Shown piece after piece: positions 1-43,703 of a stretch of 64,000 nucleotides of DNA. The translations under genes and the position numbers were made by a program. This DNA is from Marsupella aquatica (Eukaryota > Plantae > Marchantiophyta): assembly GCA_973895155.1 (NCBI GenBank), contig OZ316891.1, forward strand, positions 18,533,987 to 18,597,986, written 5' to 3'. Position 1 is the stretch's first letter; every line of letters starts with the position of its first letter. The notes below the pieces were generated by a model. The model searched no databases, had not been told where the DNA came from, and worked only from the letters and a program-made list of their open reading frames with translations.

Positions 1-5
1 TTATT

Positions 6-12203: not shown

Positions 12204-15200
12204 CTGCAAGCACATGCATCTTTGACAATTAATACTACAAGAGACCAAACTTCATTTGTAGGACGAATTTCCTATTGTAGCAAACATAATGCATCTACGA
12301 GACTAATGTAAGTTGGAAACAATTACCTTCACAATGCTTGGTGAAGCCTGATGTGGGCTAACAATGCTTCCCTGGAGTCACAATCTGCAATTGCTCATTG
12401 ACATATCATTTGAAAGCTCCACACTCAGTTTTGACTGCCAAGGAATTCGAGACATTTGCAGACGCGATAGAGGCAGACTAATCATTCAACAACGATTCAT
12501 TCATGAAGAACTTACAAATCTCAATGACACTGGTGAGCTACAATGATTTTTTGATTCAGCTGGGCGTGCTGCTGTTGAGCTTGGTTTGATTCCAACAGTG
12601 ATTTGCAATTGAGTAGGGCAGGTGCTGTTGAGCTGTTGTGATTTCTTGTCCCGATTGAGCTAGGCGACCTCGACCACAGCACATTACGCAACGCCTAAAG
12701 GTCGGCAGACTGGACCCTTCCGGTACTTACAATTCATATGGAAATCAGTGCGCTAGGTCACACACATTCTCGCCCTCCTTCGTGACCTTGAATTCCTTCG
12801 TGTCCCCTGCTCTGCTCGATCTGGCCACTACGTATGAATGTGACCTTCAACTGATGCTCGTCTGCACAGAGCACTTAGCTCTCATCTAGTCTCCAACTCT
12901 ACATAGTGCTGCTAGCGATCATAGCTGGTCCCAATAGCGCTGGTCCCGGGGCTGGTCCCAAGTCAGTTGGGCAAGTCATCCAAATGCAGCACAGTATGCA
13001 GCTTCTTATCCTTGAAAGACTTCTCGTGCTTGTTTTAGCCTCCCCTGTGCCGATGTGAACGCTGCTTTGGGCCCATACACATAGAACATAAAATGCTGAA
13101 TGCTTCCAATTTCCTCCCTCTCCATCAAGACTGATTCCGATCATGCAACGATAGTGCTATGTGCTAAGTGCTATGTGCACATTATGTCTAAACCTAGAGA
13201 AATGTGTCGCTGTGGTCGAGGCCTTTGTGTTAACCATGTACTTCTGCCAAAGCATCGATAGGACTACTGAAGCCGTTGTTGAGGAAGGGAAACCGGGATA
13301 TGGACAGACATCCGGATGGACTGACTGAAAACCTCCTGCTCCCGGTCAAACAGCTCTTTACAGGTCACCCTTGGAACATGCAGCCAATATGTGTTATACA
13401 AGCATAACTGCAACTTCGGCCTGTGTCCATCCAAGTTGTCCTTGTCCATCCGTGCATTTTTGCAAAAGTTTGTGTCTATATGGGCTTTAAGTTCTGCACA
13501 CTACAATCACCTGTGCATATATATATATATATATATCAAACTGCAGAAAAACAAAAGGCACCCAATCAGGAGACAAGATCCCAAGGGGGAAGGGCCCAAT
13601 CAAGGGGAGGCAACAAAGAAGCCAAAAAGGCTCAGGGTTTGAACAAAGGTCCACAAACAAAAGCAGCCTCATTAATACCCATCCTATGTAAATAGACATA
13701 AGGAGAAAAAAAGCCTTGTAAAAACTAACTAAAAGCTTGGATGGACTGATAGGTTGTTTATGAAGCCCCCATGTACAAACTAAACTGTTGAGCATAGACG
13801 ACAATCGCAACGATAAGCACATGACACATCCAATGATCAAATAATCGACACAAGAGATACGTGGTTCACCTCCTCGAGGCTACGTCCACGAGAATACACA
13901 AGAGAGCTTTACTGAACTCTAAGCCCGTCGGCTATACCAAGTCTCCACACACTACTACATATTTGCCAATTTTGCGAAGGCGTTTTACAAGAGGAAGAAA
14001 GCTTTGCAAGATTAATCTCATCGCTAAACTTGCGATCCGATACGCATCGCACTTAGCGAATCTACACACATCGCAACACATAATTGCGAAACTTAGACCA
14101 TCACAACATTTTACGACACTTCAGGTATCGCAAAACATTTCCGAAGCAATTACCATTGAACAAGTTAGCGATCTTTACCGCTTCGCAAATTCATTAAGAT
14201 GCGCCGGAAAACTAAATGGTTGCAAATATTTAAGCATCTCAAAATATTTTGCGAGTCTTATTGTCTCGCAAATGAGCGATATTTGTGGAATATATGGCTA
14301 ACTTGCGATAGTAATAGGCTCGCAAATCCTGTGCCTGTCTAGGGTCTCATTTTGTGAATGTTTTGGTTTCGCAACTTTGAGATGGTGGTATCTTCGGAAG
14401 TTTGCGATGAGGGAATGATGGCAATTAGGGAGCAGTTAAGTATCGCAAATGTAGCGATGAGTTTGCGGGTGTAGGGGTTTTGCAAGATGTTTCGCAAAAT
14501 ATTATGAGCGCTTCAAAGAGGTGGAAAAGGAATGGGATTGGGGAGGGAGGGTAAAGGAGGGTGGATACATGTAATTTTTAGGGAGGGACAATGAAAAGGA
14601 GGAGGAAGGGAATGGGGCTAGGAGGGACAAGGAACGGAGGGATCCAAGAGGGAGGATACGGGTTTAGGGGGCACAAGGAAATGAGGGAGGAGGAAGGGTA
14701 TGTAGATATAGTTTTAGGGAGGGTTTGGATTTAGGGAGTGAAAATAAAAAGGAGGGAGTTTAGGGTTTAGAGAGGGACAAGGAAAGGAGGGAGGGTATTG
14801 GTTTAGAGAGGGACAAGGAAATGAGGGAGGTTTAAGGGTATAGGTTTAGGAGGGAGGAGAGAAGCTAGGTTGTATAGGTAAGAGTGGGGGACAGGGGTGG
14901 AAAGTAAGGAAAGTATAGGGTTGAAATAGAAAGCCAGGGGTTGGGACAAGGAGAGGAAGGAGGAAGGAGGGTTTAATAAGAGGGACAGACAATGAAAGAA
15001 AGGAGGAGGGAGGTGGGTACAAGTAATAAGGAGAACAGCTAGGGGGGGATTAGGAAAGCATGGAGGATAGAGGACTACAAGCAACATGAGTTTTCTTTGC
15101 ATAAAGTCTACCAAAAGGTGTGGTGAGTGTGGGGTAGGGATGGGAGATATAGAAAACAACATTTGAAAATGATATACTTACAAAACATAAGTTTATTGAT

Positions 15201-15304
15201 AATTGAGAAGCACATATTTCTCCATTCTACCGAGAAGAGAAATCTTCATATCATCAAATCTAACTATATATCCGTGTAGCTATATATCCACAAACACAGA
15301 CCCC

Positions 15305-18300
15305 TCAAACTTGGTCCTCATCATCTTCAGGTTGGGACACAACTAGAATATCAGGCTTTTCCCCAACGATTGAATGAGACCGTGGCACATATGTGATGAC
15401 AAGTGACCATTCCTCTGGGTTTGGGGGGTATGGAATATAGAAACATTGTTCCACATGACTTGGAAAAGTGAACGGCTCTGATGTTTGCCAATGAGATGGC
15501 TGGAAACTAGTGGCAGACGTCTTCAGTCGTGTAAATCCACACTCATCTTGAACCACAGTAGGATTGTTACCTGCAAGGTTCACTTTGAACCACTTGCACT
15601 TGAAGACATACTCTTCAAACTTTGATTGTGCATCATAAGATATCACTAGAATCTCTTCTACCTTTCCATAATGTGGTACAACATCTCGAATAATATTTGT
15701 GTCATGGCGACTGCTGCGGGAATCTTGAGAGAATTGTCCTTGAACTCCACAATCAAAGGTACGACCCCTCTTCTCATCAAGGGAAGAAATCCTAAAATCC
15801 ATCAAACCATAAGGATATGTTACACAAAAATAGACACAAACATATTCCAATTAATTGAACACACCAAGAATCTGCCTCTTCAATATACGTGCTTGTATTA
15901 CAAATGAATTAAATTAAACCAAGTGATTCAAATCAAAGGTTACTAAGGTAGATGGAGATCACCTAAAATGTCTTCCTTGTGTCCACATTGCTGTCCTTGT
16001 TGTAACCACTCTCAAGGGACCATGAACAATGGTACGAACATCATCTGTGATAGCCGGAAAATGTAATACACTCTCTCCCCTGACCACCATGTCATCCACC
16101 TCAACTAACTTCTCCTTCATATAGTCAAGGTACTTTGGAAAAATCCTTGGTCTTGTGCTGTTACTTTTGGCATCCTCATAGAAATCCCTCCATTCTTCCA
16201 TGATAGTGTTGTTACTCAACATGAATGTGGTCAGTTGTTTCACCTCCACTGGTGTCAACATGCGAGTTTTCCTAGCACCTGTTAAACGATCCTCTTCATC
16301 TTCCCTCTCCTCTACCCAAGTACGGGGAGAGGTACAATCAATTGTGGCCAATATGTTACTACAATAGAACATACTCTCAGCTGCTAAGTATCCTGTAGCC
16401 ATGCTTCCCTCAACCCGTGCACGGTTACGTACATAACCTTTTAACACTGCCATGTATCGTTCTAGCCAATACATCCACCGACAATGCACAGGACCTGCAA
16501 TGGCCACCTCATGAACAAGATGAACAAATAAATGCACTTGACAGTCAAAAAAGGAAGGAGGAAGGGCCTTCTCCAACTTGCATACCACCTCTGCTGCCAA
16601 AACCTCCATCCTAGGGATCTCATCAGTATATATCTCCTTAGAGCATACCCATCTCAATAGTTTTCCCAATGACCAAAGGGCATCTTGCACTTCTTCACTT
16701 GCCAAACCTATTATGGCCACAGGCAATATGTGCTGCAATAACCTATGGTAGTCATGTGTCTTGAGATACCTTGGCCACTTATGATTGTCCTCCATCCCAA
16801 AGGCCTTTCGGAGATTGGCACCATAACCAGTACGAAACCGCATGTCTCCTATGCGATTCTGAAACTCCCTTCTCTGGCCAATAGGAAGCACCCATGGAGC
16901 TGAAGGTCGATGCTCGATCCCTGTGATAGGATCACTTATGACCCACACATCTGGATGCATCTCAAGATCCTCACAAGCCTCCCTGAAGTTAGTGTCTTTC
17001 TCTCCATAGAAAGCCTTTATCAAAGCCTTTCCCACATTTCCCTCAATGTGCATGGGGTCTAATAGATGGCGGATCTTCAACTCACCCCAATAGGGCAAAG
17101 TGGTTAATATACTCCACCTTGTCAAGCCACTACCGTCAAATTGCATGGGATCCTCTGGGTCTGCCACTCTTGCAGCCATGTCTTTCCAGTGTGTAAAAGT
17201 TGTTGGCTCAGGTACATCACGCTCGTCACCAAAGGGCATATCAATAGAGGAAAATAGTAGTGGGTCACGCCTCATCTGATGTCCCATTGGAAGAAACTTT
17301 GTATGCCCAAGATAAACAATCTTGCGAAGATGTGATGAATACTTGGCTACATCACCAAGGCTTGGGCCACAAGTGGAGCAAGCCTTGTAGCCTTGGGTTT
17401 GCAACCCACTCACAAAGCCAAATCCTGGTCATATAAACACACATTATGTTAGGATTAGCACATGGAAATGAGGGGATACCATGCATTAGAATATGATGCA
17501 TTTAAACAACAAAGTTCTTACCTGGGTAGTCATGCATGGTCCACATACAAACCCCTTTGAGTTTGAAAACCCGTGGGGTACCCCCTGTAGTCTTTCGACC
17601 ATCATATGCCCATACTCCTTCCCATAATTTCTGGAGTTCTTGAACTAGTAATGTCAAATAGGTGTCCATGTTCTTCACCTTCTTTGGCCCTGGGATAATC
17701 AAAGATAGCAACAAAAAACCCTTTTTCATGGACAACCATGGTGGAAGGTTGTAATTCATGAGAACCACAGGCCAGACCGATGTAGGTCTCCCCTTCCCTC
17801 CAAGTGAATGAGGGCTAACTCCATCTGATGCCAACCCCAGTCGCACATGCCGAGGGTCACGCTCAAAATCTGGCCATGTTGATTCCACATGTTTATGAGC
17901 AGGAGAGTCAACTGGTAATCGCATGACACCGGGCTCCGAACGATGTTTCTTGTGCCATACCATCAACTCGGCCAAGTCAGAACATCTATACATGTGCAAC
18001 AAGCGAGGAATTATGGGGAACCAACAAACTGCTTTCCTTGGTACCTTCTGGGTTAGCATGTTTGGCTCATACCGTGGCTCATGACACACTGTGCATTCTG
18101 TGATATGGGCGGTATCCCCGTGAAATAACATGCAATCATTCACACAGGCATGAATAATATGGTAATCCATACCAATGGATGAGAGAACCTTCTTTGCATC
18201 CTTCCAGATCCCTGGCAACACATTCTCCGAGGGTAACATCAAGTCATGACAATATTCAAATATGTCTGATAACATAGAATTGCTTGTCTTGTGTTTGGCT

Positions 18301-18677
18301 TGAATGTTCAAGAGCCCCAATATGACAGAAAGACGGCTCAACCGAGCACCCTCAGAAATAGGTGTTCGAGCATGTTCCTCTGCCTCTTTCCATTGTTGTT
18401 GTCCCTCTGGAGTATGTTGTGGCCGTGGGTCATTTGAAGGGCCAACCTCATGACCAATGTGAGGCACATCATCCTCAACATCGGCACCAAACCAATCAAC
18501 CATGAAGTCATCCATGGCTCTATCTTGATCATGCATGACCTGGTCATCAGTCCGAGGTGCGGCTTCCTCATCAGCACCACCTACATCATTACTTGATGAG
18601 GAATCACCCTCTGATGGTTCTCCCTCTTCTGGCATACCCATCTCCCGATATGTTGCTCTCAACCTTCGTGGTAACAT
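15305..18677 (-). CDS. TnpD/Tnp2-type CACTA transposase; predicted exons 18677-17522, 17424-15963, 15791-15305
   Basis: Motifs IHACVNDCMLF, CTVCHEPRY, RLGLASDGVSP, NLPPWL, HDYPG, LDPMHIE, KTHDYHRLLQ, GPVHCRWMYWLERYM, FKCKWF, EPF...QCFY (Transposase_21, DUF4218 and DUF4216 type). GT-AG introns restore the frame. Confidence 0.93.
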
Positions 18678-18909
18678 TTGTTGAGATGGTTGCGCATTCT
18701 ATGCACATTACAACCAAAAAACCTCCTCATGTATATTTGACCAAGTACAACAAATTAAAATAGACTTAACACCATTCATTCAAGACATTAAGAATTAAAG
18801 TAAATGCATGGGCTAAAACCTTATTACTCCAAAATGAGCCCAAAGGCCATATATATAATAGTAAATGGGAAGTCCAAAATAGGTGCAAGAGGATAAAGGA
18901 CATGATTTC

Positions 18910-20076
18910 CTAATCCCACTCATAGTGTGTGAATAACTCATCTCCTGCTCTAATGGTCCTAGTAGCAAGAACTAAGCAATGGTCCTTATGATATGTCGTG
19001 CCATATGGTGCCGGCATTGGACCATCAGTAAAAACCCACTCACAATTGGCCCTACGCTTGGGCCGAGTCCCCACAGTACTATTTATGAAACCAGCAATAT
19101 TCCCATTACGTATGGGATCACCATCTATCACCCGCTGCTCACTATATCTTCTAGTGCTACCATCAAAAGTATCCATCTCTAGAGCATATGTTTTCCACTC
19201 AGGATGTTGTGCAAGGATCATGTTCCAATGTCTTCTCTTGTAGATGGGTCCACCATATGGGAACAAAGTAGGACCCTCTCTACCACGAACACTTGACCCA
19301 CCCTCCTCATCCATGATGATATCCTCACAAGCAAATACTCCATATCCATGTCTCTCTCCAAGTGTGGAAGTTTTCACAATCCAACGTCTACCCCAAACCA
19401 CAATCTCCTCATCAAAATCTGTAAAATAAGGCAAGCCAAGAGTGATAGGTTCCCAATCCTTGATGATAGAGGCACACTTGCCAGTGAATGAACAAACACC
19501 CCACCTACCCTGAACTAGTGTTCTGGATGGGTCATTGGGTGCTCGTGGCCTCCTGTTGGATTGGGGCGTGGACCGGGGTCTTCGTGTCTCAGTGGGCACA
19601 TGAGGGTGTTCCCCTTCTGTCCCATGACTGGTACTAATTCCCAAACCCAAGGCTTGTGAAAGTGCATTGCCTATAGCATCTAAAACTCCTTGTGATGGGA
19701 CATAGGGTGGTGGTGTCACCAATCTACGCATACTGGATCCCTATTCCATGCAAACACCCACAAACAACCAAATGTGTAAACCATATGTGTAAACATTGAT
19801 TCACCTCTAAAAATAACAGTAAAGAACGGCAATCAATTGAAACAAACTTACCATATGGGATGAAGAAGCCCCGGGAGTAAGACCTCTATGACGTCCATAT
19901 CTCTCAATATGTTGAGCACACACATAAGATTTTTGAGAAATTTGGCCCACACATCTGGTGCAGTCACAAAGTCTTCGGGGTGGACCACGAGGACCAGTAA
20001 CCTCGGGCTGAGGAGGAGGGGGTATATCGTCATCGGAGGAGTACTCACTACTGGATAGTTCAGAGGAAGAGGACAT
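18910..20076 (-). CDS. Transposon-borne zinc-finger + SET-domain protein (predicted 351 aa; exons 20076-19852 and 19740-18910)
   Basis: Exon 1 has CDCTRC...HIERYG, resembling the CACTA transposase-associated zinc motif. A phase-0 intron atg|gtaagt...aatag|gga joins it in frame. Exon 2 has SET motifs KTSTLGERHGYGVFACEDI, PYGG, IDG...GNIAGFINST, ANCEW, LATRTIRAGDELFTHY. Confidence 0.88.
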
Positions 20077-28104: not shown

Positions 28105-28740
28105 CTAACTCAAATGGTGATGATAAAGGCTTAGAACAATATTCCTCCTTTCAGCATCCATGTCCTCGGCTTTGAAATCAATAGGCTTCTCCCTACTCTG
28201 GTAATTGGCAAATTTCATGACAAATACTCTGCAGTTGTAGTCATCGGTTTGAAGAGGGATGTCTTTACAACAGTTTCTCGGCCATGACAAAGCATTCAGT
28301 TCCTTATGAGTTCTGAACATGGCTTCATCATCTAGATATCTTGCTAGGTTCTCAAGAACTTCAGGGTTATCTTCGTGCAAAGAATCCAAATAGTCCAGTT
28401 TCCTAAGACCCATGTCGATGACGACCAGTGCCCAATGGTTATGTCCCTCATGAATAGGGACCATGACCATCTCTACATCAGTTAAAAAGTACTCCAACTT
28501 CGAGGTCCAAGTTTGAACATCGTCATACTTATATCCACCTCGCGCAAGTTCCGAATAGAACCAAGTATCAAAAATATGAACCTGCGGGAGGTCGGTACCA
28601 GCGGATTCTACTCTCGAAGCAATCAGACCAAAATAAGCATTCAGAATTTCAGAAGTTATCCATCGCTCGGGACCTAGACATGCCATCTCGTGACGAGTTA
28701 TGATGCATCCACTGATTGTCGACAAAACTAAATCCTGATC
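28105..28740 (-). CDS. Ulp1/C48 SUMO protease domain (C-terminus of the 501-aa ORF 28105-29610)
   Basis: WITSEILNAYF, FDTWFYSEL, VPIHEGHNHWALVVID, YLDSL, PLQTDDYNC; catalytic H, D, Q and C are all present. Confidence 0.92.
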   Translation of the reverse strand, partial: DQDLVLSTISGCIITRHEMACLGPERWITSEILNAYFGLIASRVESAGTDLPQVHIFDTWFYSELARGGYKYDDVQTWTSKLEYFLTDVEMVMVPIHEGHNHWALVVIDMGLRKLDYLDSLHEDNPEVLENLARYLDDEAMFRTHKELNALSWPRNCCKDIPLQTDDYNCRVFVMKFANYQSREKPIDFKAEDMDAERRNIVLSLYHHHLS

Positions 28741-29399
28741 CATGTCAGGGTTGAGGCAAAAGTCTATCGCCACATCATCGTTCAAGTTGAGAGAAGTGGG
28801 AAAGAGTGAATTGGCACCTGCCTCATTCGCAGGCTCCACTGCAAGTTCCACAACAACATTATCGACATGTCCAATGACGGGCTCGACCTCGCATGGACCC
28901 CGATTTTCTGCCCAAGTGTGGGGAGGGGATGGATTGATGATGTTAACGGCCTCTTGAATTCCAGTGACAACCCGAAGGTACTCGGAAGGATCCTCAGACA
29001 CAACCAGTGCAATATCATTTACAATTGAGTCCACCTCGCCAAACGACCCCACACGAGGCTCGCGTAGAGATAGAGGTATCCCACCGTCATTGTGTTCTTC
29101 CTCCACAAGAGGTCCTTTGGAACTCCCTAAGTGGTGGATCGGTCTTTGCGCCTCACCAAATTCCCATGGACGGCGAATCTGTTCCCCAACATTAATCATT
29201 CCAACACAAGGATCAGAAAATCTGTTATCGTCTTGATGGGAGACTGTTCCAGTGACATGATAGTGCCTCTCTTCCTTTGCGCCACTTGCATTTGAGTTTT
29301 GCGTTGAGCTGCCCTCCCCTCCTGGAAGTTTCCATAAGGATTTTGCGAATTGTGTGACACCCTCCAACAACTTGAGATTCTCCGCATAAGCCGTGAGGT

Positions 29400-30493
29400 C
29401 CATCACATCCCCCCTTTCCGAACAAAAAGAGAAACATTCCCTTTCTAGAAGAAGGGCATTCTTTAAAACTTGCCCACCAATAAAGAAGTCCAACACAATT
29501 TCCTCCTTCTCGGAAATTCGAAGAATGATTGCCTTGATAATTCTGCTGGGCTTAATGTTTGATGTAAATGTTTTGCCACCGGGGGTCCGGAAAGGAATGA
29601 GTCTATACAAGCGATCTCCAAGAGCGGATTTTTGCTTTGCTGCAACCTCTTCCTAGGAAAGGCCAGCATAATCTTCTTTGGCTGGTCTTGCCAGTTCAAG
29701 CTAATCCATGGATTCCGCCAAGAAATGACCTTGAAACCCTCTGAAATGTTTTTCCTAATCCGGTTCTTGTTCCTGGGAGACTCCAAGGAAAACAAGGGAC
29801 TCAATAATATCCGACATGAAATGCGATGAGCGGACTTCTTTCGCACTCTTCCAATAGCTTCCATACTCCAGATGAGCATTATAATTGGAAGGTAGATCAG
29901 TGACAGCTTCAATAATTCTAGCCAGCAAGAGACCTGAGTGCACAAAAAACACGACAGTCACCAAGTCGTTGGCGGGGACATTCACGACAGTCTTCAAGAA
30001 ATTCAGCAGCTCTAATTGTGTCCAAGTATTTTGAATTGAGTGTGTCATATCGACAATAGCAAGGGATGCATTAATCCTCTCCCTACAACTCATCGAATCA
30101 AAAGGAGGCTCCGCGGAAGCAAGAAGATTCCTAGAGTAAAATATTTGATATGGATCCATTCTCTCGCGGACAGTTCCCCCAAATTTCTTTTGGTAAATAT
30201 TCCGTAACCTATTCTTCAAAGGTTCCAGCATATTGGATTTTGCAGAGACCTTGACTAATTAAACTCTTGAAATAAGCATTGTCAACCATTGAGCAACATC
30301 GATCCAATTCTTCATTCGTGAAATTAAACTCGCGGACCACGTCCGACCAAACGGCCCCAACATTGAAAAAACTTTCATAGGTCTCGCGGTAGAACCGCAA
30401 GATTGCACCTTTCAACTTTTCAGTATACTTGGCTTTCATGGCAAGATGGGACATTGAAGGTATATCTGTCCTTGCATGTCTTCTCTTCATCAA
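29400..30493 (-). pseudogene. Degenerate beta-class amino (N6A/N4C) DNA-methyltransferase-like domain
   Basis: KPSRIIKAIILRISEKEEIVLDFFIGG resembles the KP..L...I...S...D.VLDPFxGSG signature. Upstream LAIVDMTH sits where the DPPY motif is expected. ORF 29755-30231 is in frame with 28105-29610 across three stops. Confidence 0.6.
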
Positions 30494-32380
30494 GAGAACC
30501 TCTCCCGATTAAACTTTATTCAAGATAGAGGTAATGTCAGATTCTTGCGCCCCCTCAAATACCCTGAATGTCATCCTAGTAAGCTACTTTGCTTCCCTCT
30601 TCTTCCCAGTCATATCTCCATTGTTGTCAAGTAAACTACCGGACAACCAACTATTGCAGATTGACATCCACAACTTATAGAGGCTCTCCGATGCAAAAAG
30701 GATCCAGTTGTATTTGCTGATGCTACTCACTTTCAGTGTGACTTTGGCCACCCTTCGTAATCTTGAAACCCAACAACAAATGGTAAGAACAACACAGTAA
30801 ACCAAACCTTTGGAGAAGGTATCTTAGAGCCAAGCCTCGGATTCTACACGAGGCTCGTGTAGACCACAAAAGAAATTATAGTGTCAACAAGAACGGACCT
30901 GGAATTCCTGGGATTTTTGCCCTGACGGCACTGGCCGCACTGGTCGATTCATTTCTGAATATTGCATTCTCACATGCCTGACCTGGTCGATGAATGGTGA
31001 TGAGAAACAATGTGCTTCAGCTTGCAAGTTTTTTGCATGTGAAATTGACCCCTTGAGAATTCTTGCACGACGGAATTTGAGAAGGTTGGCCGTTTCAACC
31101 AGAGATGGTTGTGTCCAAGAACTCCAAATGATTTTCCTCGCGGCCATAGTTGAGTGTTGACCACTTATTGCAAAATATTGATACTCGGATAATTGTTTAG
31201 AATCAAAATCTCTGACGGAAAGATCGATAAGTGTCATTTGCCTATCCAACGATTAATACGTGCAAACCGTACTTTCTTTGCTTAAAACGTTGGTATCGTG
31301 TTACGGGGTCGTGGACGCTATTTGGAGGATTTCCACACCTAAGGATGAGTATGTTTGATTCCGCTCCCGGAAGGATATTTTTTGATCAAGTCTACTGACT
31401 GGTCTCTCCGTTTTTTATCAAGTCCAAGGGACTGGTCCTACCTTCTACAACTCATGCCCACCGGGTGAGTGCTGTCATCACCCCCTCTCATGGGCAAGCA
31501 TACAAACATTTACTATAAGATTTGAACACTAGTGACAAGGGGAAAATGTTTCCACAACGGAACCGACCACATGCACTAGGGGAGGAAAACAAACAACACA
31601 AGCAACAATAAGTGACACAAAATATTGGAACCTCAAGCCAAATCCATATCTCTTGGTGTTTCTCGTAACACATGCAAGGGCAACCCGGCCTCCTGCCGTC
31701 TGCCCAACTCCTGCCTCCCTGGGACAAGAGCTACGTTCTCCACCTCACTACTCTGGCTTGAACTTCTCCTAATCAGTGCGCTACTCACAAAAGCTACTCA
31801 AAGCACTACGCTGAGTTTTCCCCCCCACTACTACGGGGCTCTCCCCCTAAATACTCAAAACAACACACCATTGAAAGCACCCCTCACGGGGTCACAAGGA
31901 TGGCGGCTACCCTAGCGGCGCCGCTAAACTCTTCACTAAGGAACCCCTAAACTAAAAGCATGCGGCACACACCTGCTTCTAAAACCCTAAACCCTAAACT
32001 AACAATGGGGCCGACGGTGCCTTCGATGGCGCCCCAACATTACTCCATGAATCGTGAAATTGCAAGGAACCCCATAATGGCCGAAACTAGGTGCCCTTCC
32101 ACTTGCACCTCTGAGTTCACCCTGGAGATCCCTCCTCCTCCTGATCATGAATCACTCAACCGCTCTTGAAACGGACATCGGACGACCAAGTTATGGTTGT
32201 TTTAGTATCCCATAAACCCAACTTTGTCGGGCCCTAACTTGCTCATCCTGGCTCCGTTTGAGGAGCGCTGCCTCTTGTTGGACTCAGCTCCGCAAGCTCT
32301 TTCCAACAAGCCCGTGAGTGACCCCTCACAAAAAAAATTGGAAAGTCAAGGGGCCGTACAACCACATCGATACGACCACT

Positions 32381-34242
32381 CTAATCCTCCTCCTCTTCAC
32401 TCACGGTACCCTGGCTTGAGCCCCGTGAGTGGGCCTCCTCATCACTCTCCACTGGAGTGAGTGCCACTTCACTCCTCTTCTTCTTCATCGGGGTACTCCT
32501 TGTGCTAGTGCTCCCCTGCTTCCTCAAATTGGCCAAGGCTTGCCACGCCTTGATGTACCCCTCACCAATGGTGTCCTTCCATAAGGCCGCCTCTTCACCG
32601 GATTGCAACTCCAACAGTAAAACCTGCCCGGTGGCCATGGGAGTCCCAGGGGTGACAGATCGGGGTGGCATCCCCGGGGTCCCCATGTTGACATGAGCCT
32701 CTCGTAACGATTTACGTACCTCCCTGAGCTTCTTCTCTAAGCTCTTGCTCTTCTCTTGACTCTTCTTGGCTGCATCCAAGAGGGGTCCATACTTTCCACT
32801 GACTTCCTTCACCACCATCTCAATGGCCCTGGAGATCAAATCCGGGGAAAGTGTGGAGCTAGGTGTGCAGGGGCTCTTCCGTTTCCCCAGACTCAAGGCC
32901 TCACTCCTCTTAGCCCTTGTCTCAAAGATCACCATTTGACCCCGTAGTGCTCCCACCTGAGCTCTTAACTCCACCACTTCTCCAGAATTCTGCTTCTCTT
33001 TGGCCAATGCCTGTTTCAATACTTCAACCTCTTCCGCTTCCTTGGCCTTGGTGGACAAGGCTCCTTTCAAGTTGGAGATCTCTACGTGAGCTGCTTGGAG
33101 AAGCTTAACCTTCTCATGCATGGCCTCCTCCTTGGCCTTGATCACCTCCTTCATAGACAGGGCATTCTGCTCCAGAGTCTCTACTCTAGCGGTGGCCTGC
33201 TTGAGAGAATCTCTCAATGCGTGGACTAGCTTGAGTCCCTCATGGACTCCCTCCCGGAAATCCCGTAATTCCGCCAGGTAGACATCAGGAATGTCGTAGA
33301 CCAGGGGCTCCTTCAGATCTCCCACAAGTGATTCAAGCCACTCCAATGTGGAGTCCTCATCCTGGTTTTCTTCCTCTCTATTATCATCCCCAACCGCCGA
33401 CGATGATCCCTCCGTTAGTTTCCTCAAGATGGTAGTGGCAATACTCCTGATTTCCGTGGTAAGGGATGATCTTGAGTCTTCGTTTCCCGGGGGAACACTC
33501 CACCCTTCTGCTCTGGCCAGCAAAAATGACCCCATCAAATGTACAACCCCACCTGGTTTCATACTCCCGGAATCGGCATCCAATAGCTTCTTCAACCCGT
33601 AGTACCACCATCCGTACACATGGGTTGGATAGTTCTTGATGTCCATAGCTACCATGAAATGCTTTCCATTCACCACCCCGGATTGCACGTTACCAAGGAC
33701 CCGTTGATGAACCTTGGCCAGAAATCCCTTGTGCTCAGCATCCTTGACGGCGGAAAGAGGAATGGAAGTAGTGGAGGTGGGATTAATCACCCAACCGGCC
33801 ACCATTGTCAACGTGAGCTCTCCCCTTATGTTCTGAGGCATGAATGAGAATTGCTGGTTCTCCAGAAATAGAAGCTTAGCTAACTCCATATGGGGCACTA
33901 CCCATTGGAGACATTCAAAGTAGATTCCTTCCGTACGTAACTCCATCCCGGCCTCAATGTTCCAACTCTTCCCCGAAGGGATTGTAATCTCCACCTTCAT
34001 GAACTCCGTGAGCCCGGTGGCTTGAAAAATATTCCTACAATCCTCCATCACCTTGGCGGAGGTTTTGGGATAAATTTGACGGAAACATTCCTACTCACCG
34101 GTGCGGAACTTGCCGCCAGTCCAGTACTCATCACAACTTCTCTCTCTTCTCTCTCTCTTGCAATCAATGTCTCAACGTAGTCACGGTAAGCAGCCTTGTA
34201 TCTTCGAATGCGTGCCGCACTAAACTCCGGTTGATTCCGCAT
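32381..34242 (-). CDS. LTR-encoded ORF (556 aa plus a frameshifted 5' part): globular N-terminal domain and long coiled coil
   Basis: Uninterrupted ORF 32381-34051 with a heptad-rich C-terminal half. IFQATGLTEFM loosely parallels FMAGSGLETFV in the solo-LTR ORF. Confidence 0.7.
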
Positions 34243-35039
34243 CCATGCATCCAGAAATCAAATCTTCAATCACCAAATCCCATCACCCGTAGCAATGTCA
34301 ATTCCCTGGCCCGAAATGGCCCCCGTATCCCGATCAATCAATTACCCTCAATTCCCTCAGAAGCCACTCAATGCCGTCGCCTCTAATGCCCAAAAAGAAT
34401 GTGAGCCCCCAAGCTCTCCCAATCCACCATGAGAGAGCTTGCAAGAGAGAGAGCTTTCGGAAATGGGAGCAAAGTGCTTTCGGCAAAGGGCGGAGTCGCG
34501 TAGAAAGTAGGGAAGGAGAAAAGAAAGGAAAATGGCTAATACAAGGGAAAGGGAAGGGAACCCCTCCCGTGTATTTTTTTCCTCCTGGCTCCTTGGCTTT
34601 CGCCATGCGCCCCGGCTCGCAGCCCTATGAAGGGCTCACGCATGCCGACACGCGGCCCTCCTCACCTCCAACTCACGGGCCCCAAATGCATGCGGCCCTA
34701 TGCAGGGTGCGCCCGGTCCTGCTTCCTCCTCACAAGAGGGTTTAATACCCCCCCACCCTCTCACCCCTCCTTTGGGCCCGGCTCGCGAGAGCTTTCCCCC
34801 CTTCCCATGACCTTTTCCTCCTGGCACCGGCTGCGGTGCATCCCGGCTTGCCTCTCGCCCTGGTAGCACCACCTGGGCTCGCCCACTCGCGCTCCTGTTG
34901 GGGGGTTTAACCCCTCCCCCTTTTTTTCTTCTCCCTTTACTCCTTCCCCTACCTGCTGCCGTGTGCCTCCAGCGCCCATCCCTGCATCCTCCCCGGCTCC
35001 CATCGTACGCCCAGCTCTTGGTATGCTCCTATCTTCTGG

Positions 35040-35530
35040 CCATGGTACCCTCCTGTCTTCTGGCCACGGTACCCTCCTTGGTACCCCCGGCTCCTGCTGC
35101 CCGCGGTACCCTCCTCGGTCACGGTACCCTCCTGCCCTCCAGCTTCCCTCTTGCCTCGGTACCCCCGGGCCATGGTACCCTTGGTACCCCCGGTACGCCT
35201 CCGGCCATGGTACCCTCCACTCACGGTACCCCCTGGCTCCTGGCCACGGTACCCCCGGTACCCCTGCCTCCTCAATGGAGGTCAAGGTACCCCCCGGCTT
35301 GGTACCCTTGGCACCCTCGGCTCCTGCTGCCCGCGGTACCCTCGCGGTACCCCCGGCTCCTCCCTGCTCATGGTACCCTCCTGCTCGTGGTACCCCCTGT
35401 TCGCCCTGCCTTGGCTCGCGGTACCCCCGGTACCCTCTTGTCTTCTGGCTCGCGGTACCCCTGCCTTGGCTCGTGGTACCCCAAGTACCCTCCTGTCTTC
35501 TGGCTCGCGGTACCCCCGGTACCCCTGCCT
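35040..35530. repeat. GGTACC-core minisatellite inside the LTR (copy at 40360-40620)
   Basis: Dozens of ggtaccc cores, mostly spaced about 10-25 bp apart. Confidence 0.9.
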
Positions 35531-35779
35531 TGTTCTCCCACAAGACCCAAGAGAGCAAAGGGTGAATTAAAAAATTAGTTCCTCCCGGGTTCAAATAGCT
35601 CCGGCCCCTCCAAAGCCACATGAACACCCACCGGGCTGAGTAACTTTTAAGAAAATAAAGAATTTAAAAAAAAAACTTGTATATCTTGGCTTATTTATTT
35701 ACATGCATCATGCCAATAACACCTAACGGTGACTTTATGTGATGGGGACCCCGTCACATAGCTCCTCTCTTAATTGCGA

Positions 35780-38700
35780 AGCGCCCCCGCGAGCACCATA
35801 CTCCTCCTTAGCATAATACTTCTTTAGGCGTTCTTGATTAATCCGTGTGTTGAGTAGTTGCCCTTCCAGCGTTTTGAGCTGAACCAATCCGTTGGAGTAG
35901 ACCACATCCACAAGGTAGGGCCCCATCCAACGTGTATGTAGCTTCCCCGGGAAATGCATGAAACGACTGTCGTAGAGGAGCACCAAATCTCCCTCCTCAA
36001 TGGACACACGGCGTCGGGAATCGTAATGCAACTTCCGTTTGCCTTGTTGTTGCTCCGTGTGCGCCAGAGCCTCCTCTCGTACTTCCGTAAGTTGCTCTAA
36101 TTGTTGGAGTCGTGCAGCGACACTATTTTCTTGCCCTTCCCTTTCCTGTGTCAGGATTCGAATGGTGGGCACCTCAAATTCCACCGGCACCAAAGAATGT
36201 TGACCAAACACAAGGGAATAGGGGCTGTGGCCAGTGGTGGTCTTGTGAGCCAGGTTGTAGGCGTAAGTGGCAGCTAGCAACTTCAAATCCCAATCTGTTT
36301 TGTGAGCTGACACCGTCTTGTTGAGAATCTTGCCCATGATCCCGTTTGCTCTCTCAGTAAGCCCGTTGGCTCGTGGATGGTAACGGGTTGTCTTCCTATG
36401 GGAGACCAAGTAGTTCTCCATTAGACGCTCAATTGTATGATTGAGAAAATTAGTACCCCTATCACTTACCAGCTCCAAGGGCCCTGGGCCCCCACTCTTA
36501 GGTAAAATGGGTCGGACGTGAGAATGATTCAAGGGTCGATTTAATTCATGTTGAAGTAATTTTTAGAATTGGCTTGTAACTAAGCAACCCACTCTTTTAT
36601 ACAAATGTCACTTTCCAAATAAGGAAGAGCACTTGATATTCCGCTCCCATTTGTTTTTGGGAAGGGGGTATATAATCATCTCCGCCACACGGCATCATCT
36701 TAGTGGTACACGTGGCATCATCTATAGGTACACATGTCTATGCCTTTTGGTATGCCGTTGTAAGTTGTGGCGGGGTTGTGGGGTTTAGGGTGGGTGTTTT
36801 GAACTACCCTGTGAGGAAACACATGGGGCAAATCCCTGCCCATTGGATCCGAGGGAGGGAAGATCTTTGAACAAAGAAAATGTAACTAATGAAGCCTATA
36901 TAAAAATCCTCAAATCTGGATTTTATAATTATCTCAAGGATATTAAGTATTGTCAAAATATATTTTTGTCTAAATAACAAGGCAAATTTTTATTGTTTAA
37001 AAAATAATAACAAGGGGTACTAGAGGGGGGTCTGTTCACAGGGGGGTAGAGATTTCTTAGTGGGAGTGGGGGCCCAGGGTCCAAGGGTGGGCCGAACCGT
37101 GTAAAAATCTGCTCATACAAAAACCGTGCTGTTGTGTTGGCATCATCTTTTGCAGTTGCTCGGGCCTCCACCCACTTGGTAGCATAGTCCGTAGCTAGGA
37201 TGATATACCTCTTCCTTCCCCTCTGTGTGATGGGAGTGAACGGACCAATGAAGTCCACTCCCCACTTCTCAAATGGGGCAAGAGGGAGGATTGGCACCAA
37301 TGGATGTCGTGAGGAGGGGCCAGGTTTCCCTTGGCGTTGGCAGGGGTCACATCTCTGGATGTACCGGTGCCGGGACCGGTGCACATCCCGAAAAAGAGTT
37401 GGCCACCAATATCCCGCATCCAGTATCTTTCTAGCAGTTGTCTCCCGAGCAAAGTGACCTCCTGCTTCCTCCTCATGTAGTGCTACCATGATGGTACGTA
37501 TCTCAGCTTCCTCCAAACAACGACGAAATCGGCCATCCATGCCGTACTTGTGTAGTACTCCTTTCACAAGCAAGTAGGGACCCGTCTTACATAAAAATAC
37601 TGCTGCACGTTCCGGATCTAACCGTAATGGAACCTTAGCTATACGGAGAAATTCAAAAATTTCTTCATACCAAGTAATGGCCTCCGTAGTCACCCTGAAG
37701 ACTTCTTCATCGGGAAAACGATCATCAATCTCTTGAGAGTCAGATGCTCCCTCAATACATGAGAAGAAGTTAGCATTGCTGTGACTCTTCCCGGATCTCA
37801 CCCTCACCTCATAGTTGAACTCCTGCAATAATAGGACCCAACGTGCAATTCTCCCCGACAAGTCTGGCTTGTTGACCATGTACTTCAAACTATTGTGATC
37901 CGTGTGGAACACAACCTTGTAACCCAACAAATAATGATGATACTTCTTACAAGCATAAATGATACCAAGAGCCTCCCTATCGGTGGGTGAGTAGTTTTTC
38001 TCTGCCGGGGCCAACTACCTACTGGCAAAGTAGATGGGATGATCCCTCCCATCATCATCCAACTGACTCAAGACGGTACCGATGCAAAACCCTGATACGT
38101 CCACGTAAACATGGAACTCCTTATTCCAATTAGGCGTAATGAGTACGGGAGCCTCTAGCAAACGTTTCTTCAATTCATCAAAAGTAGCTTGTCGGGAAGG
38201 AGTAGGTTCAAATTCACTTCCCTTCTTCAACATGGATGTGAGTGACATGGCTACCTTGGCAAAGTCATGAGTCGTTGAATCATGCCAGGGGCATTGCACA
38301 ACCCAAAAGGCATTCGACGGAATGCAAAAATCCCCCACTCCGTGGTGAAAGCCGTCTTGAGTTGATCCTCCTCTCGTATCCAGATTTGATTGTATCCAGA
38401 GTAGCCATCTAGGAAGCTGTAAATCTCCCAACCAGCCACCATATCCAACACAATATCAGTAAACGGCAACGGGTAGTGATCCTTCTTGGTGGCCTCATTC
38501 AACTTCCAAAAATCTTGACACACCCGTATTTTCACCTTCCCGTCCGGCCCCTTCTTCTTGGGCACTATCACGATGGGTGATACCCACTCACTATGCACAA
38601 CCGGATAAATGAATCCTGCATCTAACAGACGGTCAATCTCCTCCTTCACCATGAGTGAGTACTTGGAATTGAGACGGTATTGGCGTTGCCTCACTGGCCG

Positions 38701-40360
38701 TGCTACAGACATCAAGTCAATGCTATGCTCACCAAACTCAGGTGGCACTCCCTTCAAATCTTGGTGGCTCCATGCAAATACGTCTTGATACTCCTTTAAC
38801 AACTCTTGAATAGTGCTTTGCTCCGTAGCATCCAGCTTGCTACCAATGTTGAGTGTCTTGCCTTCACCCACCTCCACCTTGGTGTACTGCTCCGGCCTGA
38901 TCACGTCCAGCTTGTTACGTGTCTCCTCATCAAAAGTCTCCTCCAACCGTGCTAGTCGCATTCCTCCGTACACTGGTGCATCACTATCCTGTTGGTCTGG
39001 CTGAGTTGGGGGTGGGTCTTTTGTCACATGGGCCATCATTTTTTCCACGTCAGATTCTTTGTAATGTGACAGTAGCTCCTCTCTTAATTCTTCATCCAAG
39101 AGGTCATTCAGCCACTCCTCCCTTCGTTCATCGTCAAACAGAATGGCTTGAGCTTCCTGCCCCTCCTCCTCCGTTTGTTCCTCCTCCATTTGTTCCTCCT
39201 CTTGAGTATCAACAAGTTGGGCCAGGGGTGGTGTAGGTGGCTCTTCCCTGGTTTTCCTCTACACAACATAACTTTGGTCAAGTGGTACTTCCGTAATTTC
39301 CTCCTCAATGGTAGCAGCTTGTGGGCCAAAGACATCTTCCTCCGTCAGATGAGAAATCAACTTCACCATGTATACTTCATCCTCGTCTTCATCCGAGGTG
39401 ACCTCGGGATCATATTGCTCTTCCATAGAGGTAGTCTCCCCCTGAGGTGACTCCGCTGACCAGGGAATGATAATAGTGGGGGTACCAAACCGAAACTGCC
39501 GTTTGCCCCAATCGCTGGTTACTTTAGCCACATACAACCAAGGACGACCAATTAGTATGGGAAAACCGTATGGCCTGACTGGCCGCATTACCAAGTAATT
39601 GAGGGGAAAGGATCTCCCTCCAATCATTGTTGGAATCTTGGTGAGACAACCCAACGGGACCACTCGTGCCCCATCTGCCAGCCTCATGGCACGTGCTGGT
39701 GGCTCCAACTCCGTATATCCCAACCGATTGGCTGTCTCCTCGGTCATGATGTTGACTCCTGAGCCGCCATCCACCGGTACAAACCGTATTGCACATCCGT
39801 TGATGTCCATCGTGACCTCTGGGGCACCCAAATCCTCCGTGACCCAATTGACTTGTATGGGGTCAGCCCCGACTCTTGGCAACCTTCTTCTACGCCGCCT
39901 CCCCATGAGCATCTCCTTGACTTGACGGCGGTAGAGGGAACTATCATGTAAGAGTTGACCAATGGTAGCAGTGACCGGGCAATGTAGAATGTCTTGGCCA
40001 ATATTGTACGCTGTTGCAGGAGGTATGGGTGGGATGACGTCCTCTCTTGGTTTCCACCGAACAACCTTCTCCTCCGCTTTCTTTCTAGCCTTTGCCTCCT
40101 CCAGGTCTTTGTCAATGGCCGCTTGCATTTCTTGTGCTTCTAGCTCCTCTAGCTGCTTACGTACTTCCTCCCCCACCTTGGGGTAAAACAACTTGGGGTT
40201 ATCCCGGTCAAAGTCGCTATCTTCCATGGGTGGCACCTCCGGTTTGTGTGAGGTGCCCGATGTGGAAGCTTGATGCACCTCCTTGTACTTCTGCTTGAGT
40301 TCAGACTTATCCTTCTTTTTCCTAGACCGAGTGGAGACCCAGTAACAAGAGTAGTGTCTC
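35780..40360 (-). pseudogene. Gypsy gag-pol remnant: protease, RT (internally deleted), RNase H, integrase
   Basis: PR VDGGSGVNIM. RT LDGYSGYNQI and MPFGLCNAP, with the YxDD segment missing. RH YVDVSG and TDHNSL. IN H..GGH...CDPC, GVDFIGP, SDRG, NGLTERAN, WMGPY. Confidence 0.93.
36482..37079. mobile_element. Non-autonomous TIR element (MITE, 598 bp) inserted in the integrase
   Basis: 16-bp TIR CCCTGGGCCCCCACTC. 8-bp TSD TCCAAGGG at 36474-36481 and 37080-37087. Removal restores RFGPPLELVSDRG. Confidence 0.93.
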
Positions 40361-42849
40361 CCCCGGTACCCCTGCCTCCTCAATAGAGGTCAAGGTACCC
40401 CCCGGCTTGGTACCCTTGGCACCCTCAGCTCCTGCTGCCCGATGTACCCCCAGCTCCTCCCTGCTCGTGGTACCCTCCTACTCGTGGTACCCTGCTGCTC
40501 GTGGTACCCCCTATTTGCCCTGCCTTGGCTCGCGGTACCCCCGGTACCCTCCTGTCTTCTGGCTCGCGGTACCCCCAGTACCCTCCTATCTTCTGGCTCG
40601 CGGTACCCCCGGTACCCCTGCCTTGTTCTCCCACAAGACCCAAGAGAGCAAAGGGTGAATTAAAAAATTAGTTCCTCCCGGGTTCAAATAGCTCCGGCCC
40701 CTCCAAAGCCACATGAACACCCACCGGGCTGAGTAACTTTTAAGAAAATAAAGAATTTAAAAAAAAAACTTGTATATCTTGGCTTATTTATTTACATGCA
40801 TCATGCCAATAACACCAAACGGTGACTTTATGTGATAAGACTGTAAACACCATTAATCATCTTGTAAGGCACCAGATCTGCAGGCAAAGGTTCCTGACCG
40901 GCATTTGAAATCATCAATTGAACAAGATGGTTGACATGGTCTTTGTTGAGTAACCGCTCATTCATTTTTGCCGGCGGAGGATAGATATTCATCAAAGGAA
41001 CGAGGAAAAATTTTGACAGCCCAAAAGAATACCAGCATTGGTTTTGCTGCAAAGTCTTTTCTGCCCTCTCAAGTCTGGCTCGATCAACGATTACTTTAGA
41101 ACTCGAGTCAGCATTTATCTCTCCCATGTCATCGACGACATCCATCTCAATCATCTCCACTTTCTTACGTTGTTTCTTCGGGATTGGGACACCGGTTTCC
41201 GGTGCCTCTTCTGTTCCCTCAGTCTCTCTTTTGCAGCCCCTTCCACGCTTGGACTTCTTCGATCTTGTCACCCCATGGTATGTGGATACGTCTTGCACTT
41301 GAGTATTGACCTTTTGAGATTTTGAAGGCACCTTCTGTTTCACGACAGCGGAAGGTGTTGCAGTGGAAGCCTTACGAGACAAATCCTTCTTAACGACACC
41401 TTTTGATACGGGTTTTGCTATCTCTTCCACAACTGCCTGCTTCTTTTGAGCCTTCTTCCTGATAGCCTTCTTTTGTTCTGGCATTTCGGCCGCTTTATAC
41501 TTCTTCTGTGGTTGTTTGGACTTTGTGATCTGTGGCCCTTTCACCTCAGTAGAGCTAGTGCGGATTTTTGCCTGAGGGACATTAGCTTTCCCAACCTTCT
41601 CTGGAAGAGCAATCTTTGAAGACAATCTCTTCTTCTTGGAAGGAGGAGCGTCTTCTTCCATTCGCTTTCTTTTCTTTTTCTTTTGCACCTCCATCTCAGT
41701 CTCAGAGTCCTTTTCCTCTTCAGCGTCTGAGCCTCCCACTTTCGCAAGTTCTTCATCCACGGCTTGGATCTCATCTTCAAAGATCTCCTCTGTTCCAACC
41801 AATTCAGGACTCAAAGAGTCACTGGGAACAATGCTCGGTTCATCTGATGTACCCTGTGAACTTGATGATCCTGAATCTAAACTCGACGATGATCCAGGTT
41901 CCTGTACAACTTTGCTTGCTTTGAGATTTGGGCCACCACCATGACGTCCATGCCTTTTCTGATTCAAATTGAAGGCCTTCACTACAGGATGGATCGCAAC
42001 CCAACGTTTAATCCTTTCCTCGTCAACTGGATCTGGGAAAGCAATTTCTGGAATGATCTCAATCTCCTGCCGGAGTTCATCTTCCGGTAAAGATAGAGAC
42101 ATAACGTAAACAACATGCCTGGTTGTAGAAAGGTGAGATTGATAATCTTTGAAGAACAAAAAACTAACCCTTCCTAGCCCTGAAACAATATCCTCAACAG
42201 TGAGAACATTATCTGGATCCATGAAACGATGAGAGGATGGATGAAAAAATCCTAAGGACGTTATGTTGATTGTCGCATCATTTGGCTCAAGACAATGTGT
42301 GCAACAATATTGTTCAACGGGAAGATAGAACTCTCTATATCCATAATTAATGCGGTCCTCCACCGTCACTGTCAGAAAGACCTTCCCCTTCTGGTGCTCT
42401 GGTGCTTTTGAAATCCTACAATCGGCAAGCACACCCAAGTACTTCCAAAACCTCTTGGGCTTGGCAATAACGATCCCCTGCAACCAACACCTCCAAGCGT
42501 CACCCTCCATACGCATTTCAAAAGACCATGAATTGACGATTGGATTTTGGTGGCTAACAATGCTTTGACTTAGCGACTGCGGTAGGCACGGGTGGCTGAA
42601 ACAAACATACGGGAATCCTAGGAAAGAACCAATACGGAAGATTTAGAACAGAGTCGAAGATGTCAAAACAAATGTTGAGATTTTATTATTCACAAAAATG
42701 GACAATCCGTCCAGAAAACAACTCATTCAACCAAAATGGACTTTGCCCGCTCGACTACCATCTTCTAAAGTTGGGGCACATATTCATTTGGGTGCCTCGA
42801 TATCCAACTAAACAACTCGTCTAGTACTAAGTCTTGACAGATGAGTTCT

Positions 42850-43703
42850 AGGGAAATGTCTCCTAGGCTGCTTCCTTCTTCAGCCTCTTGATAGTCTAGA
42901 GGTGGCCTTCCTCCTGGGCCGTCATGATAATCAGCTTCTTTGTGAGCGTTTGTATCTGACTCTCACAAAGCTCATCAAGCTTGGCGGCCTCCTTCATCAC
43001 TAGGCACAACTCCTGACATGTCTGAAGATGGTTCCGCTGAGCTCAAAAATATCTTCCAACATAATCCTTTCTAATCAAACTAATCTCTTCATCTTTCTCC
43101 TTCACAGTTTCTTGCAGGGTCTCAAGTTCCTCGAGGACATCCTCAGTCATTTGGGACTCCTTCTCATGTTTATCTTTGATCAATTTCAAATGTTTCAAGG
43201 CATTGTCGATTTGGCCTTCAAGGTAACAAATGAGCCTCAGGTGAGTAACATGCTCTACACGAGAGTTGCGTGAAAGCAAATGGAAATGATATTTACTCCA
43301 ACGCATTTTCATACGGAAGCATTGATGGGATGAGGATCGTCCAGGATCTACACGAGAGTCGCGTGAAGATAGAGATAAAAAACATCTAAAACTGATTCGG
43401 AGAAAAAGACTGAGGGTTACCTTCAAGCATGATCTGTGCATTCACGGCATAGTACTGGAGCTCATCTACACGAGTCTCGTGTAGAAAACTTAGTAATTAC
43501 TAGGTATCGCATACAACAAATAAATCTAATAGGATAATGTCTACACGAGACTCGTGTGGAAGGAACCGCTGAAATTTGAAATAAAAACAAACAACAAAAA
43601 GAAAAACTAAAGATCTACACGAGTGTCATGTGGAAATACCTTCAACTCTGGTGAAAGCTGCGACCGACATCTCCCGGACCTCTGATTCGGATAGATTTGC
43701 CAT
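42850..43703 (-). pseudogene. Small coiled-coil gene remnant of the giant element
   Basis: YLEGQIDNALKHLKLIKDKHEKE...LEELETLQETVKEKDEEISLIR, continuing past stop codons. Confidence 0.4.

Follow-up and report, generated by a model that had tools for sequence, protein, structure and literature searches.

The window analysed here is a stretch of 64,000 nucleotides from the liverwort Marsupella aquatica (contig OZ316891.1, positions 18,533,987 to 18,597,986 of the forward strand). Its minus strand carries, at 40834-31232, a decayed Ty3/Gypsy retrotransposon that ends in a 4,527-bp unit enclosing a long sense open reading frame (ORF) for an accessory protein. It is very likely that this unit is the element's long terminal repeat (LTR).

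Architecture of the element

The element is bounded on both flanks by the 5-bp target-site duplication (TSD) CTTAT, found at 40835-40839 on the 5′ side and at 31227-31231 on the 3′ side. Empty-site contigs, with 31231 running on into the sequence left of 40839, were recovered from two sequencing runs (X3, n = 2; X4, n = 2). The 5′ LTR is reduced to a remnant of ~475 bp (40360-40834), recognised by its match to the unit behind the polypurine tract (PPT) and corresponding to LTR nt 18 to ~490, with 12 substitutions (9 transitions) in 458 aligned columns and 3 gaps. Its opening 17 nt and everything beyond nt ~490 are gone. Because a deletion fuses the remnant to the end of gag, the 5′ primer-binding site (PBS) and a second copy of the ORF cannot be seen in the window.

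What is left of gag, together with the aspartic protease, occupies 39259-40350 (Pfam Asp_protease_2, 5.5e-4; tblastn with the related proteins P0003 and P0007), and the first ~570-590 gag codons are absent by comparison with both proteins. Reverse transcriptase (RT), RNase H and integrase follow at 35804-39189 (Pfam RVT_1, Integrase_H2C2 and rve; alignment to P0007). This region is broken by the loss of ~108 RT codons at 38263, by in-frame stops and by a miniature inverted-repeat transposable element (MITE) inserted in integrase. Neither an extra RNase H nor a chromodomain was found in the element's pol by Pfam or by alignment to relatives. Rfam gave no matches in 30500-41500, and no tRNA was found.

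An earlier note on this DNA had described a PPT directly after integrase, followed by TGTGAC, and a 4.5-kb unit running from there to TGACA at the TSD. Both descriptions hold: the PPT AAGAGAGGAGCTA occupies 35771-35759 directly after the integrase end, and the unit (TGTGAC...TGACA, 4,527 bp) extends from 35758 to 31232, with CTTAT on both sides of the element. The same sequence was said to recur at the element's 5′ end. This is borne out for unit nt 18 to ~490, but TGTGAC itself is absent there, as the first 17 nt are missing.

The 4.5-kb unit as a probable LTR

The entire 4.5-kb unit (31232-35758) most likely constitutes the LTR, with the accessory gene likely present twice per element. The unit has TG right behind the PPT and CA at its end, and the TSD surrounds the element. 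The earlier reading of the unit as an LTR enclosing an ORF is further supported by the copy at the 5′ end, by the PPT/LTR junction, by the points at which other copies end and by contig depth.

The junction was compared with that of L001, a metagenome element from the same RT clade, which is organized as pol, internal PPT, 742-aa ORF, PPT, LTR of ~1.0 kb and PBS. At L001 3756-7590, two PPTs ending GGAGCTA flank the 742-aa ORF, which has no Pfam family, and the LTR begins TGTGA. When the PPT/LTR junction of the window element is compared with L001, the PPT next to the LTR scores 58 and the internal PPT 18, while none of 420 other sequence windows scores above 22. Position 35758 is therefore a genuine LTR start. 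At the other end, contigs covering 31190-31300 lose their match precisely at 31232 and continue into unrelated flanks (X1, n = 9; X3, n = 8; X4, n = 4), whose agreement beyond that point is 0.41-0.52.

Depth was compared between single-contig rows of an abundant subfamily in X3 and X4, among the 32 of 15,630 pieces listed and with multi-contig sums excluded; the subfamily is ~12% diverged from the window copy, and contigs were placed at 85% likeness. Among these rows, X3 depth is 6000-6328 over the unit (5 places) and 2845-2934 over pol (3 places), a ratio of 2.12, and X4 depth is 1536-1627 (6 places) and 687-725 (4 places), a ratio of 2.25. Unit depth is thus 2.1-2.3 times that of pol across 31232-34692 in both runs, and it stays flat from the terminus through the non-coding tail into the ORF: four X4 contigs of the tail average 1583 (1536-1627, terminus included) against 1608 (1599-1616) for the ORF. 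No internal repeat or PBS was found within the 4,527 bp. Contigs nearly identical to the window copy reach a depth of ~30 in X3 and ~10 in X4. The depths suggest a high-copy family with very roughly 60-100 pol-bearing copies, contig depth not being a copy count.

If the LTR is the whole unit, the gene is duplicated with each insertion. We infer, as the earlier note did, that it survives in solo LTRs, and a depth ratio slightly above 2 would be in keeping with this; no solo LTR of the window element's family was seen.

The accessory gene

The frame within the unit (32381-34048, minus strand) encodes an N-terminal domain, an acidic linker, a long coiled coil, a KKKR motif and an acidic tail. In 1000 resamples of the unit no open frame reached its length, the longest being 338 codons. 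The earlier note had reported an intact ORF of 556 aa. A long sense ORF is indeed present, but it comprises 555 aa plus a stop and forms the 3′ part of a longer, frameshifted gene: the homolog P0124 aligns first to 34242-34147 (78% identity over 32 aa) and then, after a change of frame, to 34102-33707. The first match (34147-34242, P0124 aa 1-32) represents the true 5′ end of the gene, which is therefore ~60 codons longer than the ORF and is broken near 34.1 kb in the window copy. From these alignments its full size is estimated at about 600 codons. One abundant X3 contig has an indel difference near the frame break.

Thirteen homologs were found at E ≤ 0.001 among 1.84 billion representatives. 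Eight were looked up: four are “unnamed protein products” of Calypogeia fissa and four come from Logan contigs. The Calypogeia proteins are CAM6083533.1, CAM6129071.1, CAM6126659.1 and CAM6090912.1. Among the indels listed (12 of 93), three of the five that fall in the gene preserve the frame, as against none of the six in the tail (p = 0.06). A word-based protein search with the ORF (305-972 aa) gave no match, nor did one with an alignment of the N-terminal domain (1044-2980 aa), a range that misses likely homologs. No locus encoding the ORF was found in metagenome contigs or among 159 fetched loci, and scans of viral collections returned nothing.

Proposed layout of the LTR

The gene starts at LTR nt 1517 and stops at nt 3378. 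Upstream of it, 24 GGTACC motifs lie in degenerate tandem repeats at LTR nt 236-715 (35044-35523), where 2000 resamples gave a mean of 0.9 and a maximum of 6. This array likely serves as an enhancer or a protein-binding array, as judged from its motifs. It is followed by a TATA-like box, TATTAAA, at LTR nt 1012 (34741-34747, minus strand), a candidate core promoter, and by a leader-like CT-rich tract (34429-34559, minus strand; LTR nt 1200-1330) that is 80% pyrimidine in LTR nt 1201-1300. Behind the gene, the 3′ part of the LTR is a 1.15-kb non-coding tail (31232-32380, minus strand) with two telobox-type repeats (31996-31982). In functional terms, the LTR would be ordered as enhancer array, core promoter, leader, gene and tail. 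This order would place the gene downstream of the transcription start site, in R/U5, as the first reading frame on the transcript from the 5′ LTR, and would permit its expression from either LTR or from a solo LTR.

Predicted fold and role of the accessory protein

Indications of a fold come from the homolog P0128, which shares 29% identity with the window protein over aa 8-176 (E 2e-18). Its Atlas model matches eight plant clusters (TM 0.59-0.70), four of which carry Transposase_32, ATHILA, PMD or DUF1985 domains, the TM values being 0.70 for ATHILA ORF-1, 0.68 for Transposase_32, 0.65 for PMD and 0.59 for DUF1985. The N-terminal domain is thus predicted to adopt a PMD/Transposase_32/ATHILA ORF-1/DUF1985-like fold. 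Other searches were negative: the Atlas feature search with the window domain gave no match, the full-length model had no Foldseek match at E ≤ 0.001, and a sequence search of the PDB gave only coiled-coil noise. A coiled coil is located at aa 255-386. No membrane segment was detected (top 19-aa hydropathy 1.01), and the product is therefore not env-like.

As a predicted member of the PMD/Transposase_32/VANC fold group, the protein may be a nuclear, oligomeric helper that binds DNA or chromatin and stimulates transcription of its own element. It is predicted to oligomerize via the coiled coil and to counter silencing at the GGTACC array. Such an anti-silencing role is proposed by analogy, and its probability is about even at best. 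PMD proteins counteract Polycomb in conjunction with DNA motifs, and their fold is shared with the DUF1985 domain of VANC (bioRxiv 10.1101/2024.09.27.615353, PMC13547354), whose targets are tandem repeats in its own transposon (PMC5735166).

Lineage and related elements

The nearest named relatives of the RT are from Calypogeia fissa (79%) and Riccia sorocarpa (63-71%). In a tree of 50 rows, from which none was left out and in which clades carry no labelled reference sequences, the window RT falls with Calypogeia and Riccia in a clade of 19 rows (100/98), apart from a seed-plant clade of 20 rows (99/98). The family is Athila-like Ty3/Gypsy and not Phygy. Athila features include the order GAG-PR-RT-RH-INT (protease, PR; RNase H, RH; integrase, INT) without extra RNase H or chromodomain, and a 5-bp TSD. 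The primer site TGGCGCCG, which we take to be complementary to tRNA-Asp, is present in clade member L001 and also in L003, L009, L011, L012 and L014, and is absent from the window copy. Among Athila elements, 72% have a tRNA-Asp primer site and 95% a 5-bp TSD, although the latter is common to most lineages (PMC6317226). One Athila hallmark is lacking, since the PPT directly follows integrase and the ORF lies 1.5-3.4 kb inside the unit, not between pol and the 3′ LTR.

Phygy, which has a 4-bp NCGN TSD and a tRNA-Trp primer, is ruled out by the 5-bp CTTAT. Tat, Ogre and Retand were rejected, as the extra archaeal-type RNase H (aRH) was not found. The Tat clades Z1 and Z2 lack aRH and are present in Marchantia and other liverworts (PMC10508981), and the element may belong to one of them.

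L001 resembles the window element in its PPT/LTR junction and RT clade; it differs in that its ORF lies outside the LTR and is not detectably similar to that of the window. An ordinary 3′ accessory ORF may have moved, or been re-acquired, downstream of the conserved PPT/LTR junction. Because the LTR start is the conserved one, transfer or re-acquisition of the gene downstream of it is likelier than extension of the LTR from an upstream PPT. Growth of a long LTR through takeover by the internal PPT was rejected, as the junction matches the LTR-adjacent PPT. In L003, apparent 6,190-bp “LTRs” (1-6190 and 12557-18746) with a 1,226-aa ORF were traced to an over-unrolled circular assembly, PPT and PBS placing the ORF outside the LTR. 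In L081, a more distant element on a contig filed under a bacterial metagenome-assembled genome (MAG), a 325-codon frame after pol (19068-20042) extends ~110 nt into the 1.65-kb 3′ LTR. Many of the contigs L080-L159 are filed under bacterial or archaeal MAGs and carry eukaryote-type Gypsy elements, likely through binning contamination or chimeric contigs.

Weighing the interpretation

Several observations weigh against the interpretation developed above, and the first of them concern the extent of the LTR. No full-length copy with two ~4.5-kb LTRs was obtained from scans of contigs, metagenomes, viral collections and loci, the 19-kb contig of P0007, sought as a close full-length relative, was not found, and no PBS junction occurs among the rows listed. 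The depth rows were hand-picked from two runs. Multi-contig rows at 31312 are about double (X4, 3238 over 5 contigs; X3, 11,339 over 4), through overlap or true doubling, X4 rows at 31514-31614 have half the depth (757), and summed bin depth in the tail is 1.45-2 times that of the ORF in all four runs. At 85% likeness the abundant subfamily leaves LTR nt ~135-1390 nearly bare, the exception being an X3 contig at 34616-34692 with a depth of 6000. Conceivably, the family has a short LTR and keeps its ORF in the internal region, as accessory ORFs ordinarily are; the copy in the window would then be a rearranged chimera, and pol-less derivatives would account for the twofold depth. The uneven summed depth of tail and ORF and the doubled rows at 31312 would favour such an arrangement, as would the mere ~475 bp left of the 5′ LTR, a purine run followed by TG 255 nt before the unit end, and the relatives L001 and L012, whose ORFs lie outside the LTR. 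However, overlapping contigs are counted twice in summed depth, the X4 terminal contig (1536) is close to the ORF (1599), and the purine run at 31490 aligns to no PPT junction (scores 12-20). Moreover, the element's 5′ end is a copy of the post-PPT sequence and not of the terminal segment, and a single TSD embraces the element. The short-LTR arrangement, which the earlier note had named as its refutation, predicts at least twofold terminal depth and a terminal segment at the 5′ end, neither of which was observed. The flat depth and the lack of a terminal-segment copy at the 5′ end make it very unlikely. Somewhat less improbable, though still unlikely, is a gene inside a 4.5-kb LTR but within U3, as in sag of mouse mammary tumour virus (MMTV), the genomic start lying within the final 1.1 kb and the gene being expressed from an additional promoter or through splicing. 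MMTV itself provides the precedent (PMC9412291), and the 1.15-kb tail with its teloboxes approaches the size of the entire L001 LTR (~1.0 kb). Nevertheless, the tail lacks similarity to that LTR, a TATA-like box with a CT-rich tract behind it occurs solely upstream of the ORF, and the LTR start matches the LTR-adjacent rather than the internal PPT of L001.

The remaining points concern the protein. Pfam gave no match above the curated cut-off for the ORF or for the N-terminal domain of its homologs, and all Atlas matches fall below the naming bar and derive from a homolog model of predicted local distance difference test (pLDDT) 0.51. The window protein's own models are poor (N-terminal domain pLDDT 41), and profile comparison with the accessory ORFs of relatives, one of which matches Transposase_32 at 3e-7, scored 19.7 against a shuffle maximum of 21.9. 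The GGTACC array is uncovered in the abundant subfamily and may be peculiar to the subfamily of the window copy. The LTR gene could be a passenger or serve another role, such as particle structure, nuclear import or integration targeting, while the array is independently bound by SBP-box factors of the host. SBP-box factors recognise a GTAC core. The lack of coverage of the array is in line with this alternative, and the reviews consulted assign no role to the accessory proteins of Athila, Retand and Ogre (PMC7264820, PMC11963269). On the other hand, the gene is conserved across liverwort lineages and its indels are in frame, which argues against a passenger, and the fold group is tied to anti-silencing through DNA motifs. 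We regard this alternative as improbable, yet the most serious of the three.

A second unit and other features of the window

A second unit on the minus strand (55113-50403) is 4,711 bp long and runs TGTGATGC...GCACCACA, with TG...CA ends and the 5-bp TSD CACCA. It splits a CACTA transposase exactly at codon 266. Neither gag nor pol nor an internal repeat was found in it. It carries a decayed long sense ORF with a coiled coil and a domain that matches the accessory-ORF profile of the relatives at 29.1 (shuffle maximum 18.4). Since the PPT core of the lineage lies 14 nt ahead of its terminal CA, the unit may equally well be an ordinary element with two deletions or a gene-bearing solo LTR of another family, and it is not counted as support. 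Kinship between the 3′ ends of the two units was rejected, their similarity not exceeding background (49 versus a maximum of 50).

The MITE in integrase (36482-37079) is 598 bp long, with 16-bp terminal inverted repeats and an 8-bp TSD, from whose length we take it to be hAT-like. It is multi-copy in all four sequencing runs, and the joint 36473-37080 occurs in three of them. The retrotransposon itself sits within a long ORF of another multi-copy repeat (28105-31231 and 40835-43441, minus strand), which also has an Ulp1/Peptidase_C48 ORF (6.8e-32). A Pfam search of the interrupted frame gave no match; the frame contains an ISGQH stretch, presumably reminiscent of ParB/sulfiredoxin-like domains.

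The rest of the window is transposon-rich plant DNA with CACTA transposases and an F-box gene (2084-3964, minus strand), the sole clear host gene noted. Immediately upstream of CACTA frames for Transposase_21 and DUF4218 (15959-18677), and sharing their strand, is a SET-domain ORF (18910-19731, minus strand; PF00856, 5.6e-6); these frames may belong to a CACTA element with a histone-methyltransferase-like gene. Tandem arrays outside the element have units of 24 nt (58448-58594) and 107 nt (4723-4980).

Overall interpretation

Taken together, the locus probably holds a broken copy of a high-copy, Athila-like family with a 4.5-kb LTR that carries an accessory gene twice per element, this gene coding for a predicted nuclear helper of the PMD/Transposase_32/VANC fold with a presumed role in promoting the element's own transcription. 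A more far-reaching reading, which we put forward tentatively and consider doubtful, is that the LTR is a self-contained anti-silencing module comprising a promoter together with a VANC/PMD-fold gene and the GGTACC array targeted by its product. Each insertion would double the gene and solo LTRs would supply the protein in trans, possibly in several liverwort families, with the second, 4.7-kb unit as a candidate.

Solo-LTR formation is normally a means by which the host disarms retrotransposons. With a gene inside the LTR, the process would leave behind a promoter-plus-gene unit and not a dead remnant. The presence of a candidate protein and a candidate target array in one repeat offers a compact test of what PMD/ATHILA/Transposase-type accessory proteins do in plant Gypsy elements. 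Polycomb represses transposons in the plant group of this host (bioRxiv 10.1101/2022.10.24.513474). There is also a consequence for annotation, as coding LTRs of 4.5 kb, solo copies included, end up among annotated host genes; the “unnamed protein products” of Calypogeia may be such cases.

Comparison with known systems

PMD, Transposase_28 and ATHILA ORF-1 are the extra-ORF domains that typify Ogre, Retand and Athila, respectively (PMC6317226). As the earlier note stated, extra ORFs of Athila, Tat and Ogre usually lie outside the LTRs, and both PMC7264820 and the Retand survey (PMC11963269) place them in the internal region. LTR lengths reach ~5 kb (PMC6317226), and a length of 4.5 kb alone is not new. 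A 2026 preprint describes plant LTRs as non-coding, yet reports many transcripts contained within LTRs (PMC13192763). In the literature surveyed, as represented by titles and abstract openings, no plant LTR retrotransposon with a whole gene in its LTR is described. Tekay elements have extra ORFs on the 5′ side (33%) and on the 3′ side (18%) (PMC6317226, Additional file 5), and these two-sided ORFs may be unrecognised LTR-borne ORFs.

Athila shares with the window element the GAG-PR-RT-RH-INT order, the lack of an extra RNase H, the 5-bp TSD and an accessory ORF in sense orientation whose product is predicted to fall in the same fold group (PMC6317226, PMC7264820), and the TGGCGCCG primer site of the window element's relatives adds to the likeness. 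In Athila, however, the ORF lies between pol and the PPT, whereas here it is inside the LTR and pol reaches the PPT; the window RT also falls outside the seed-plant clade. Ogre is comparable in its very long LTR (1.9-6.5 kb) and in a PMD-like accessory gene that possibly precedes gag on the genomic RNA (PMC6431247, PMC6317226). In contrast, Ogre ORFs are internal, its LTRs are described as non-coding, and an extra RNase H is present.

A gene encoded in an LTR was already known from retroviruses, as the earlier note stated: in MMTV, sag lies in U3. The sag/naf case resembles the window element in having a complete gene inside the LTR, twice per provirus, with its own LTR promoter (PMC9412291). 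It differs in being a retrovirus whose U3 encodes an unrelated membrane protein, while the window protein is larger, non-membrane and likely encoded downstream of the start site. The VANC protein of VANDAL elements and the PMD proteins MAIN and MAIL are reminiscent of the window protein in their fold group (DUF1985/PMD), in the coiled coil and in a tandem array of short motifs within the element's non-coding DNA (PMC5735166, bioRxiv 10.1101/2024.09.27.615353, PMC13547354). These are encoded by a DNA transposon or by host genes, the likeness is without a sequence match, and DNA binding and anti-silencing by the window protein are predictions. The finding is a new placement, within the LTR, of a known kind of accessory gene.

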